A DNA stretch of 21,551 bases, taken from IMG/VR virus record IMGVR_UViG_3300035682_000015. One strand, 5' to 3'. The notes under the pieces were generated by a model. The model made no database searches. It had not been told where the DNA came from and saw nothing but the letters and a program-made list of their open reading frames with translations. The stretch is from a virus (Duplodnaviria > Heunggongvirae > Uroviricota > Caudoviricetes). The position numbers were made by a program, and so were the translations under genes. Shown here in pieces: positions 19,698 to 21,551 of this stretch. Every line of letters begins with the position of its first letter. Within the stretch, counting starts at the first letter, position 1.

Positions 19698-19717
19698 CAA
19701 AACTTTTTTAAAATAAA

Positions 19718-19749
19718 TTTGTTTAATTAAAAAACTTATATTACTTTTG
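19718..19749 (+). promoter_or_regulatory. Bacteroidetes-type promoter TTTG-N20-TActTTTG
   Basis: TTTG 19718-19721, TACTTTTG 19742-19749, ATG four nt downstream. Confidence 0.75.
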
Positions 19750-19753
19750 TCCT

Positions 19754-20014
19754 ATGAAAACATTTGATGATTTAATATTTAAACCACACGAGATGGGTAA
19801 TGGAGCTGTTCAAGCAAGAATGGACTTAGGAAACGATATTGAAGTTTCAGTTGTTGGTGGAAAACATTTATACGGAAATGGGGTTACTTCATTTGAAGTT
19901 GCAGCATTCTACCAAACATTAGGTAAGTTTGTCCCATTAGATGGTAATGATGTTTCCGGTTGGAATTCAAAAGAAGAAGTAACAAAAATTATTAACTATT
20001 TAGAAAATTTATAA
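19754..20014 (+). CDS. Hypothetical phage protein
   Basis: ORF directly under the promoter. Confidence 0.7.
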   Translation: MKTFDDLIFKPHEMGNGAVQARMDLGNDIEVSVVGGKHLYGNGVTSFEVAAFYQTLGKFVPLDGNDVSGWNSKEEVTKIINYLENL

Positions 20015-20016
20015 TT

Positions 20017-20283
20017 ATGCCAGATTTTAGTGCGTCAGTAGACATAGAACCTTGGGAGTATATTGCGGAATGTACTCGTAGTGAAATTGAAGATTTAATT
20101 GAATCACTTGTTGAAGATGGTCATTTAGATTCATTCAACGGGAAAGTTAAACCAAAAAAAGAAGGTGCGACCGTGATGGAGTTAGAGTGGGATGAATTAA
20201 TGACAAAGATTAGAAATTCTAAACATTTACTATCCAACGATGATGAAAGTAGAATAATTGAGATAGCTAATAAATTGGTATAA
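20017..20283 (+). CDS. Hypothetical phage protein
   Basis: ORF tiling. Confidence 0.65.
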   Translation: MPDFSASVDIEPWEYIAECTRSEIEDLIESLVEDGHLDSFNGKVKPKKEGATVMELEWDELMTKIRNSKHLLSNDDESRIIEIANKLV

Positions 20284-20304
20284 TAAAAAAAAATAAAAAA
20301 AATA

Positions 20305-20335
20305 TTTGACTTTTGAAGAACTTTTCGTAAGTTTG
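20305..20335 (+). promoter_or_regulatory. Bacteroidetes-type promoter TTTG-N19-TAagTTTG
   Basis: TTTG 20305-20308, TAAGTTTG 20328-20335. Confidence 0.7.
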
Positions 20336-20384
20336 ATATAATTATAAGAAACACAGGTAGAGATACCACAAAAAAAAAAGAAAA

Positions 20385-20495
20385 ATGAAAAACACTAATA
20401 AACATATGAACGTCGTGATTTGGAAACAACAATTTAGTAATTGTTCGTATCCGCGTATCTCGCATACAAGTTCAGGTGATAATGATTTAGTGTAA
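20385..20495 (+). CDS. Putative leader peptide (36 aa) of an attenuator
   Basis: Not in the ORF track. MKNTNKHMNVVIWKQQFSNCSYPRISHTSSGDNDLV; A-rich initiation region; lies between a promoter and a terminator. Confidence 0.55.
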   Translation: MKNTNKHMNVVIWKQQFSNCSYPRISHTSSGDNDLV

Positions 20496-20526
20496 TGTAA
20501 TGTAAAAAACATACAACAAATATATC

Positions 20527-20563
20527 AAAATCCTGAACTCAAAAAGTTCAGGATTTTTTTTTT
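20527..20563 (+). terminator. Strong intrinsic terminator (putative attenuator)
   Basis: AAAATCCTGAACT-CAAAA-AGTTCAGGATTTT followed by a T run. Confidence 0.85.
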
Positions 20564-20582
20564 GAAATTTTTTATAAAAAAG

Positions 20583-20613
20583 TTTGTCAGTCACAAAAAA
20601 AGGATTACCTTTG
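20583..20613 (+). promoter_or_regulatory. Bacteroidetes-type promoter for the tRNA array, TTTG-N19-TAccTTTG
   Basis: TTTG 20583-20586, TACCTTTG 20606-20613. Confidence 0.7.
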
Positions 20614-20662
20614 TCCCATCAAACAAAAGGAACGTTATTTGAAATATTGGTAAGAAAAAAAT

Positions 20663-20746
20663 GGAAGGCGGCCGAATGGACGAGGAGCTTGTCTTGAAAA
20701 CAAGTAGCAGGTAACACTGTTGTGGGTTCGATTCCCATGTCTTCCT
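20663..20746 (+). tRNA. tRNA-Ser (anticodon UGA)
   Basis: Acceptor GGAAGGC/GTCTTCC; anticodon arm CTTGT-CTTGAAA-ACAAG; long variable arm; T arm GTGGG-TTCGATT-CCCAT; CCA not encoded. Confidence 0.92.
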
Positions 20747-20847
20747 CGGGTTAGTTAAATAGTTTAATCCACACCCAAAAAAGAATGTTCGGCGGGAGGC
20801 CGAGGCGAACGTAATTGTGGTAATCGTTCTTTAACTAAAAAATATTT

Positions 20848-20919
20848 TGTCCCTTCGTATAACGGTTAGTACACGTAGTTTTGGTCTACGCGGAAGTGGT
20901 TCGATTCCATTAGGGATAA
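20848..20919 (+). tRNA. tRNA-Gln (anticodon UUG)
   Basis: Acceptor TGTCCCT/AGGGATA; anticodon arm CGTAG-TTTTGGT-CTACG; T arm AGTGG-TTCGATT-CCATT; followed by CAA, not CCA. Confidence 0.9.
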
Positions 20920-20922
20920 CAA

Positions 20923-20967
20923 GGGTTCGGTGGAAACCCAAGAATAGATGATGAATCTATGTCCACC
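20923..20967 (+). ncRNA. Putative H-type pseudoknot RNA element in the tRNA-Gln trailer
   Basis: S1 GGGTT/AACCC, S2 GGTGGA/TCCACC, S3 ATAGAT/ATCTAT; all Watson-Crick. Confidence 0.45.
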
Positions 20968-20973
20968 AAAAAC

Positions 20974-21041
20974 ATCGAGTGGTCCGGGACCAAAGACGGC
21001 TCATATCTGACTTTAGAATGGCTCAACACCATTACTCGGTA
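20974..21041 (+). tRNA. Atypical or degenerate tRNA-like element, anticodon CAU (Met/Ile2)
   Basis: Acceptor ATCGAGT/ACTCGGT; loop CTCATAT; T-like arm AATGG-CTCAACA-CCATT; shortened D arm; one A.A mismatch in the anticodon stem. Confidence 0.5.
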
Positions 21042-21094
21042 CGGGATGAACTAAATTTGTATGTTTATAGGTTGGAAGAACAAAACATATATTC

Positions 21095-21165
21095 ACCTCG
21101 TTGGCGTAATGGTAGCGTATTTGTCTTACATACAAATGGCGGTGGTTCGATTCCATCACGAGGTA
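21095..21165 (+). tRNA. tRNA-Val (anticodon UAC)
   Basis: Acceptor ACCTCGT/ACGAGGT; anticodon arm TTTGT-CTTACAT-ACAAA; T arm GGTGG-TTCGATT-CCATC; followed by CAA. Confidence 0.92.
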
Positions 21166-21188
21166 CAAAAAAAATATTAAAAAAAAAA

Positions 21189-21219
21189 TTGGTAGTTTAA
21201 AAATTAATACGTAATTTTG
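21189..21219 (+). promoter_or_regulatory. Bacteroidetes-type promoter TTG-N20-TAatTTTG
   Basis: TTG 21189-21191, TAATTTTG 21212-21219, ATG four nt downstream. Confidence 0.7.
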
Positions 21220-21223
21220 TCCT

Positions 21224-21551
21224 ATGAAAAGATTTAAAGTAAGATTCAATTTAGGTAGAGGTGAAAATTACCTTAAATGGAAAGTAGAACTTCCGGGAGA
21301 ACAGATGAAATATCTTGACCCAAATGAAGTTCAATTAGTTCTTAGAAATTGTGAATTAAAAAACAATCAAAAATCTGCTCAGGAAATATTTCAAGGGGAC
21401 TATAAAAAAGTTTGTTCTTGGGTATTATGTGAGTCGGTTGAGATTAAAACAAATGATTTTTCAACTCATAGTGAAAATCAAATTAGATATAATCCAAGAG
21501 TTCAACCAAATTGGTTAATGAACGATAAAAATGTGGATGGTGAAAAATTTG
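21224..21551 (+). CDS. Hypothetical phage protein, truncated by the window end
   Basis: Not in the ORF track. MKRFKVRFNLGRGENYLKWKV...CSWVLCE...IRYNPRVQPNW, open to the end of the window. Confidence 0.7.
   Translation, partial: MKRFKVRFNLGRGENYLKWKVELPGEQMKYLDPNEVQLVLRNCELKNNQKSAQEIFQGDYKKVCSWVLCESVEIKTNDFSTHSENQIRYNPRVQPNWLMNDKNVDGEKF

Follow-up and report, generated by a model that had tools for sequence, protein, structure and literature searches.

In the leader attenuators of the trp, his, thr, leu and ilv operons of Proteobacteria, a promoter is followed by a short translated open reading frame (ORF) and then by an intrinsic terminator, whose 5' arm can be captured by an alternative helix situated within the ORF. 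Slow or rare codons lie just 5' of the capturing strand, and stalling of the ribosome upstream of it leads to read-through into the genes for biosynthetic enzymes. Here we describe a similar arrangement in front of a tRNA array in a window of 21,551 nucleotides (nt), i.e. the whole stretch of DNA that was analysed, from a phage of the Caudoviricetes (IMG/VR record IMGVR_UViG_3300035682_000015). The element at 20305-20563 shares this layout from the promoter to the rare codons, including the predicted read-through after upstream stalling, and we see about even odds (a probability of roughly 0.5) that it acts as a ribosome-dependent transcription attenuator heading the tRNA array of a jumbo phage. 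It differs from the amino acid-related leaders in several respects: tRNAs instead of biosynthetic enzymes would be controlled, tandem runs of one regulatory codon are missing, the stop codon is situated 17-29 nt past the capturing strand and not before it, the helix that could sequester this strand beforehand (1:2) is unsupported, the peptide core is conserved, a second promoter follows the terminator in most copies, and the element is phage-borne with a promoter context of the Bacteroidota type.

Other leader-controlled systems resemble the locus in part. In pheM-pheST of E. coli, a leader-peptide attenuator with a run of Phe codons controls a synthetase operon in response to the charged tRNA that is available. 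The control of a translation-apparatus component by a leader peptide is common to both cases, whereas at the phage locus the tRNAs themselves are the products and no amino acid dominates the leader. T-box riboswitches also report the tRNA status by a choice between a terminator and a weaker anti-terminator; however, they are untranslated and bind the tRNA directly via the specifier loop and the T-box bulge. To our knowledge, T-boxes are not known in Bacteroidota, and the T-box covariance model gave no match at E <= 1 between 19600 and 21551. At the same threshold, the Rfam search returned tRNAs only, plus sub-threshold matches of Thr_leader, NrrF and Plastid-ycf2 on the terminator or a tRNA, and the Thr_leader match (RF00506; 20486-20562, 25.6 bits vs. 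a gathering threshold of 55, E = 0.046) covers essentially the terminator. The TnaC, SpeFL and Erm/Cat leaders stall on a small molecule and act mostly via Rho or the exposure of a ribosome-binding site. They share with the phage element the short conserved leader peptide and the principle that the translation state sets downstream expression, but nothing in the phage leader indicates an arrest motif or a ligand. Finally, phage tRNA clusters, for example the T4 tRNA region, likewise have dedicated promoters and interspersed small ORFs, but we know of no leader ORF/terminator switch in such clusters, and a full-text literature search, which was limited and leaves absence unproven, returned no described attenuator of phage tRNA genes.

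The window represents the minus strand of a 53.9-kb record with a CheckV completeness of 18%; it belongs to a jumbo phage, because its relatives are 150-320 kb long. The phage appears to infect freshwater hosts of the Bacteroidota type. A neighbouring protein used as query yielded 6 related loci, an exact 20-mer taken from the leader ORF 24 viral contigs, and a codon-level degenerate pattern 26 viral contigs (3 of them new) and 68 metagenome contigs. In total, the module was found on 27 viral and 68 metagenome contigs (~95 related contigs), mostly from freshwater samples with few wastewater or other sources, and these provided working sets of 88 complete ORFs (50 distinct), 68 distinct full elements and 66 distinct downstream contexts. 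All homologues fall into one narrow clade of ~300-kb phages with a peptide identity of at least 82%; a 40-amino acid homologue used as protein query matched close relatives at this identity only, none of which carries a functional name, and blastn of 19700-21551 gave no match among the INPHARED phages. The gap examined reaches from the stop codon of an 88-amino acid gene (20283) to tRNA-Ser (20663). In comparison with relatives, the element is conserved far above its surroundings: the neighbouring protein of locus L007 is only 53% identical, yet up to codon 29 its ORF shows a single base difference. The upstream context can vary, with two extra ORFs in L007. Each of the 66 distinct downstream contexts is a tRNA array, and the module was never seen elsewhere. 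An earlier note on this DNA had proposed a translation-sensing attenuator at this site. The promoter, the ORF, the terminator, a second promoter (P2), an internal repeat and the tRNA genes for Ser, Gln and Val were all found at the coordinates it had given (Table 1), and its attenuator interpretation is partly supported by the comparison of homologues.

The leader ORF is evidently translated and a real coding sequence, because it is unbroken in 88 of 88 copies, its insertions and deletions (indels) are all multiples of three, and its tail carries synonymous changes (in 4 of the 5 codons that differ between L019 and L010). Conservation of the ORF, one of the checks suggested in the earlier note, was thereby established. 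The ORF comprises 35, 36, 40 or 41 codons, and indels of any length occur in the 5' untranslated region (UTR) and in the spacer after the stop codon. The peptide core (residues ~7-28) is nearly invariant; beyond codon 30 the tail is mosaic, with a dozen or more types that share an acidic/hydrophobic pattern without exception. No match to the peptide was obtained in PHROGs, Pfam or the ESM Atlas, and public gene callers label the ORF as hypothetical protein. A minus-strand ORF at 20342-20512 was rejected as a candidate, since its frame is broken by UTR indels. Short metatranscriptome contigs from 3 studies cover the ORF of relatives and end between the stop codon and the terminator. These contigs support no conclusion: transcript ends are invisible in them, the tail differs among strains, and some of the sequence may stem from carried-over DNA.

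The central observation is the repetition of the octamer AGTTCAGG, which occurs within the ORF at 20469-20476 (region 2) and again in the 3' arm of the terminator at 20545-20552 (region 4), so that the copy in the ORF is able to pair with the 5' arm (region 3). The octamer is exact in the window, as the earlier note had claimed, and the family conserves seven of its eight bases: 20469-20475 are complementary to 20533-20539 over 7 bp in 67 of the 68 distinct elements, slid controls collapse, and the eighth pair is present in 9 of 68 distinct copies, the type to which the window belongs. When the upstream 185 nt were shuffled by mononucleotides, an 8-mer of the GC-containing core was found in 0.13% of the shuffles, a 7-mer of this core in 0.9% and any 7-mer of the 13-nt arm in 4.3%. 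Eleven distinct elements, which span four tail types and several N-termini, have changed codon 29 from AGT to GAT together with a change of the terminator 5' arm from ACT(C) to ATC(T). Both partners of two adjacent pairs are exchanged in these elements (A-U became G-C, and G-C became A-U), and the pairing is extended to 8 bp. The 3' arm has remained unaltered, and the top two pairs of the terminator thereby become a G-U pair and a mismatch, which lowers its predicted stability from -15.3 to -12.1 kcal/mol. Compensation in the ORF instead of in the 3' arm is the pattern predicted by selection on the 2:3 helix, and to judge from these alignments the anti-terminator is preserved at the expense of two pairs at the top of the terminator stem. 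The covariation between the in-ORF repeat and the terminator stem, which had been named as a further check, was thus found with the 5' arm and not with the 3' arm. The 2:3 duplex has an energy of -9.4 kcal/mol in the common type, -10.8 kcal/mol in the variant and -6.5 kcal/mol in L089, the sole mismatched combination, which is regarded as a recombinant because it joins the 5' UTR of one lineage to a 3' part identical to L091. When all 68 elements are compared, the association of the in-ORF site is stronger with the arm sites at a distance of 68 nt (r2 0.90) than with variable sites only 10-12 nt away (0.61-0.69), and the intervening region is mosaic.

The whole 225-nt transcript folds better than shuffled sequences (z = -4.8). 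Before region 3 exists, region 2 is weakly paired with TGAAC at 20407-20411 (possible region 1) in the nascent fold as well as in the consensus fold. In the nascent RNA up to region 3, the minimum free energy structure contains the 2:3 helix (P at least 0.95), while in the finished transcript the 13-bp terminator beats the 7-bp helix. The 2:3 helix therefore matters only during transcription. The distance from TTCAG to CCTG amounts to 51-65 nt in most copies (44 nt in L102, 40 nt in L056) and is held although the tails are mosaic and the stop codon position moves by 12 nt. In the terminator itself, L102 has replaced a T-A pair of the lower stem by C-G, a compensatory change, and four lineages show an A-to-G wobble. 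The 1:2 helix (20407-20411 with 20470-20474) was dropped as an established part, because 9 of the 11 variant copies carry a C-A mismatch in it.

We infer the following direction of the switch and role of the ribosome. The first 150 nt of the RNA started at P1 would encode the short peptide, and region 2 (7-8 nt within codons 29-31) would pair with region 3 as soon as the latter leaves the polymerase, thereby denying it to region 4. If region 2 is free of ribosomes, the anti-terminator would form and the polymerase would continue into the tRNA genes. This would be the case when translation has not begun, lags behind or is halted in codons 1 to ~24, a stretch that includes the TCG/CCG/CGT/ATC run. 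A ribosome that keeps in step and is located on or just beyond region 2 would instead permit the 13-bp terminator to form, and the RNA would end at the U tract. Folding with a masked ribosome footprint of 28 nt agrees with this sequence of events, since the 2:3 helix was kept with the A site at codons 6-22 and lost at codons ~26-35. The claim that stalling upstream frees the anti-terminator is in line with these predictions for an A site before about codon 25.

Table 1. Features of the putative attenuator and the adjacent tRNA array (window numbering).
Feature	Position	Strand	Description
Promoter P1	20305-20335	+	-33 TTTG (20305-20308), 19-nt spacer, -7 TAAGTTTG (20328-20335)
5'-UTR hairpin	20356-20367	+	GGTA/TACC 4-bp stem with GNRA tetraloop; GGTA-GAGA-TACC in the window
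Translation initiation region	20368-20384	+	A-rich, unstructured; length in homologues shifts by non-multiples of 3
Leader ORF	20385-20495	+	36 codons + stop; 35-41 codons in homologues
Possible region 1 (TGAAC)	20407-20411	+	could pair with 20470-20474 until region 3 is made
Conserved intra-ORF hairpin	20422-20452	+	GGA/TCC plus 8-bp upper stem, loop TAGT; RNAalifold consensus fold
Rare-codon run	20445-20462	+	TCG TAT CCG CGT ATC TCG, codons 21-26; adjoins region 2 on its 5' side
Region 2, anti-terminator strand AGTTCAG(G)	20469-20476	+	codons 29-31; pairs with 20532-20539
ORF tail, stop codon and AT-rich spacer	20477-20526	+	variable; loop of the anti-terminator
Terminator	20527-20563	+	arms 20527-20539 / 20545-20557, 13 bp, predicted -15.3 kcal/mol, 10 T (10 U in RNA)
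Region 3, terminator 5' arm	20527-20539	+	ACT(C) to ATC(T) in the variant clade, matching the in-ORF change
Region 4, terminator 3' arm	20545-20563	+	arm 20545-20557 overlapping the 10-T tract 20554-20563; same in the variant clade
Promoter P2 of the tRNA array	20583-20613	+	TTTG (20583-20586), 19 nt, TACCTTTG (20606-20613)
Pre-tRNA leader motif	20638-20657	+	TTTGAAATATTGGTAAGAA; retained in copies without P2
tRNA-Ser(UGA)	20663-20747	+	start of the array
tRNA-Gln(UUG)	20848-20920	+	array
tRNA-Val(UAC)	21095-21166	+	array

Several points weigh against a ribosome-dependent attenuator. The geometry fits poorly to a trp-type mechanism, since the stop codon of the common 40-codon form lies 29 nt past region 2, and a ribosome waiting at this stop codon would sit at least 11 nt beyond region 2 without covering it. 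Region 2 would then have to be masked by a ribosome that is still translating, by a second one, or by steric exclusion in the loop of 55-65 nt. With 7-8 bp and -9 to -12 kcal/mol, the predicted anti-terminator is short in comparison to the -15 kcal/mol terminator, the anti-antiterminator 1:2 pairing is without support from covariation in the alignment, and apart from Gln-Gln the leader has no tandem regulatory codons. The conserved peptide core could point to a functional micro-protein, and a promoter directly after the terminator, as seen in 63 of the 66 contexts, looks like the usual layout of two independent units. Moreover, the covariation may go back to one mutational event that was spread by descent and recombination, and homologues that are all so close to each other seem to provide few independent tests.

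The alternative that survives best among those considered is an independent small-protein gene, which we regard as possible but rather doubtful. Promoter P1, ORF and terminator would then form a self-contained, probably early unit for a protein of 36-41 amino acids, the terminator would insulate it from the tRNA array driven by P2, and the complementarity would have another role, such as in how the finished mRNA folds or how stable it is, or would have hitch-hiked by accident. The nearly invariant core and the kept pattern of the tail would suit such a protein, as would the annotation by public gene callers, the strong terminator and the ribosome geometry that is ill-suited to a classical attenuator; however, the peptide has no family or fold match and the ORF never occurs away from the array. 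A role of the 7-bp helix in the finished mRNA is difficult to reconcile with its defeat by the 13-bp terminator outside of transcription, and it would be left unexplained why the altered 5' arm was matched by a change in the ORF instead of one in the 3' arm. A consensus promoter 20-50 nt past the terminator in 63 of the 66 contexts is what two separate units would predict, whereas the -7 box of P2 is deleted in the three others (L013/L063, L022 and L048) by a clean deletion of ~45 bp, and intact tRNAs are retained behind the terminator there. At 40 nt past the terminator of L013 and L022 begin the tRNA genes for Pro, Ile, Lys, Cys, Trp and Asn with 5-nt spacers, then those for Tyr, Gln, Met and Val, and no full TTTG..TAnnTTTG promoter was found for ~1.25 kb past the terminator. 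These ten tRNAs are intact in diverged genomes and must be expressed, and since no other promoter is seen, read-through is the only visible route. On these grounds, read-through appears to be physiologically necessary in this sub-clade. Downstream genes free of a promoter of their own are thus found in three contexts, and P2 is present in the window and in 63 of the 66 contexts. For the majority of the clade, the ribosome-dependent attenuator would add to a baseline provided by P2, as the earlier note had assumed for the window; in the sub-clade without P2, read-through would be the sole visible source of the ~10 tRNAs.

A factor other than the ribosome, acting on the same pair of helices, is improbable. 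An RNA-binding protein or an RNA, e.g. a tRNA, of phage or host origin would bind to the hairpin at 20422-20452 or to the GNRA hairpin in the 5' UTR and shift the balance of 2:3 vs. 3:4 in the manner of a T-box, of PyrR/TRAP or of N/nut, and the ORF would be translated without being the sensor. The covariation of 2:3 fits this explanation equally well, and the hairpins fit in part. Codons 17-24 show zero synonymous variation in the 50 distinct ORFs, though the search pattern permitted it and codons outside this block do vary synonymously; these codons form the 3' half of the hairpin 20422-20452, whose 5' half shows only CAA-to-CAG changes that yield G-U pairs. Therefore, a nucleotide-level constraint beyond coding acts on this block, and the hairpin is a candidate for a pause or synchronising hairpin. 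The loop of the 5'-UTR hairpin is GAGA, GAAA or GTGA and thus GNRA in every case while its bases vary, and the stem is unvaried in 20 of 21 copies. However, this hairpin is missing from L085 and L102 and is hence dispensable. Compared with lambda-type N/nut antitermination, which combines a promoter-proximal boxB-like hairpin with an arginine-rich N protein, the leader has this GNRA hairpin, which two homologues lack, and a peptide without an arginine-rich motif. Against a factor, there was also neither a T-box nor another Rfam match apart from the sub-threshold Thr_leader on the terminator, no candidate factor was identified, and regions 1 and 2 lie within the translated frame, so that ribosomes must affect both. 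Concerning the three further hairpins listed in the earlier note, the one at 20356-20367 was recovered, the one at 20428-20445 turned out to be part of the larger hairpin 20422-20452, and the one at 20447-20467 is reduced to a 3-bp GCG/CGC pairing in the consensus fold.

Very improbable is the absence of any regulatory link, with the repeat arising by chance in AT-rich DNA and the co-variation reflecting tight physical linkage only, because, in spite of the close relationship of the sequences, a covariation that possibly represents one event and the 4.3% of shuffles with any matching 7-mer, the core 7-mer and 8-mer are much rarer in shuffles, both adjacent substitutions exactly restore Watson-Crick pairs, the distant partner is more strongly associated than nearer sites are although recombination is visible in this region, and a mismatch occurs in 1 of 68 copies only.

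If the element is a ribosome-dependent attenuator, the sensed signal, as far as we infer, is most likely the decoding speed, which would reflect the supply of the array's own tRNAs. Codons 21-26 form a rare-codon run. Counted over 39 long ORFs of the record, TCG has a share of 6% among its synonymous codons, CGT 12%, ATC 15% and CCG 17%. Codons 21-24 are unvaried in homologues, while codons 25 and 26 vary. The run is placed where a slow ribosome would expose region 2, but a constraint on RNA structure could explain it equally well. Over the whole leader, codon adaptation is unremarkable (24th percentile of 36-codon windows), and only this local run stands out. A further-reaching and rather unlikely version, which we put forward tentatively, is a homeostat of the tRNAs that the phage itself provides, in which their scarcity or destruction would make the ribosome lag and turn the array on, and plenty would lead to the masking of region 2 and stop transcription. 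The leader codons that are slow in the host would then be read by tRNAs of the array, namely TCG/TCA by Ser-UGA (the first gene), CCG by Pro-UGG, CGT by Arg-ACG and ATC by Ile-GAU. The match between leader codons and downstream tRNAs, which had been taken as an argument before, is uninformative as such, since the array covers most amino acids. A general sensor of translation stress that includes the response to anticodon nucleases or tRNA depletion is speculation.

Phage tRNA genes are usually regarded as constant additions to the tRNAs of the host, or as spares against tRNA-cleaving defences. If the attenuator reading is true, the phage would gauge the translation capacity and tune the output of an array of at least 15 tRNA genes accordingly. 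Classical attenuation would then also cover a new class of target, namely RNA genes that serve translation, as well as phages and the promoter and translation context of Bacteroidota, in which few attenuators are documented. The homeostat, if true, would be the first attenuator that sets tRNA genes by the decoding speed these tRNAs provide, and it would represent a built-in sensor of tRNA-targeting host defence. The element comprises ~260 bp and exists in natural matched, compensated and mismatched variants, one of them without the bypass promoter; therefore, it can be tested directly with reporters.

Regarding the promoters, P1 matches the -33/-7 consensus of Bacteroidota. Its -7 box is retained in homologues as TAnnTTTG, with AG, AC, CC or TA at the two free positions. 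An extended -10 box of the E. coli type (TGATATAAT) at P1 was rejected, because it is unconserved in homologues, unlike TAnnTTTG. Motifs of the TTTG..TAnnTTTG type occur 16 times on the coding strand of the 53.9-kb record vs. once on the opposite strand. At 21190-21226 of the window, a -7 box (TAATTTTG, 21213-21220) ends 3 nt ahead of the ATG of an ORF at 21224, and the TTTGTCCTATG arrangement with a -7 box close to the ATG was found again at two more genes of the record, which suggests leaderless or near-leaderless mRNAs within the tRNA region.

Downstream of the window's array, the record contains 12 further tRNAs and several more promoters of the P1/P2 type. According to ARAGORN, the first tRNA is generally located 40-135 nt from the element, with two cases of ~400-550 nt, one of which is L052 with an inserted HNH-type ORF. 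The conserved pre-tRNA leader motif (TTGAAATATTGGTAA) is positioned ~5-10 nt ahead of the first tRNA in two separate promoter-led groups, at 20638-20657 and, as a near-copy, before tRNA-Glu at ~30275-30294 in window numbering and thus past the window end. Its sequence does not match the promoter consensus, and it could be a processing signal or a binding site. Between tRNA-Ser and tRNA-Gln (20748-20847), a conserved spacer of ~100 nt contains a GC-rich stem as well as a small hairpin (GGGTTAG...CCACACCC). Many relatives share this spacer, and others, e.g. L005/L014, lack it and have the two tRNAs 5 nt apart; it looks like an optional RNA element inserted into the array.

In the 174-nt spacer between tRNA-Gln and tRNA-Val (20921-21094), neither ARAGORN nor Rfam called a tRNA, and the CAU tRNA that the earlier note had placed downstream was not called by these programs in the window. 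The same interval of several relatives contains a called tRNA-Met(CAU) or tRNA-Cys, and L056 and L076 have kept the spacer sequence seen in the window, which could represent a degenerate or deviant tRNA-like RNA. In L052, an ORF with CxxC and HNH-like motifs lies ~430-900 nt past the terminator between the array leader and tRNA-Ser, and it looks like the insertion of a homing endonuclease. In L039, ~250 nt of GC-rich and apparently highly structured sequence follow tRNA-Gln at ~330-600 nt past the terminator within AT-rich surroundings. Finally, L048, which is without P2, carries a small ORF of ~270 nt between tRNA-Pro and tRNA-Ile with -7-like boxes behind it, an insertion indicating that the array is readily remodelled.

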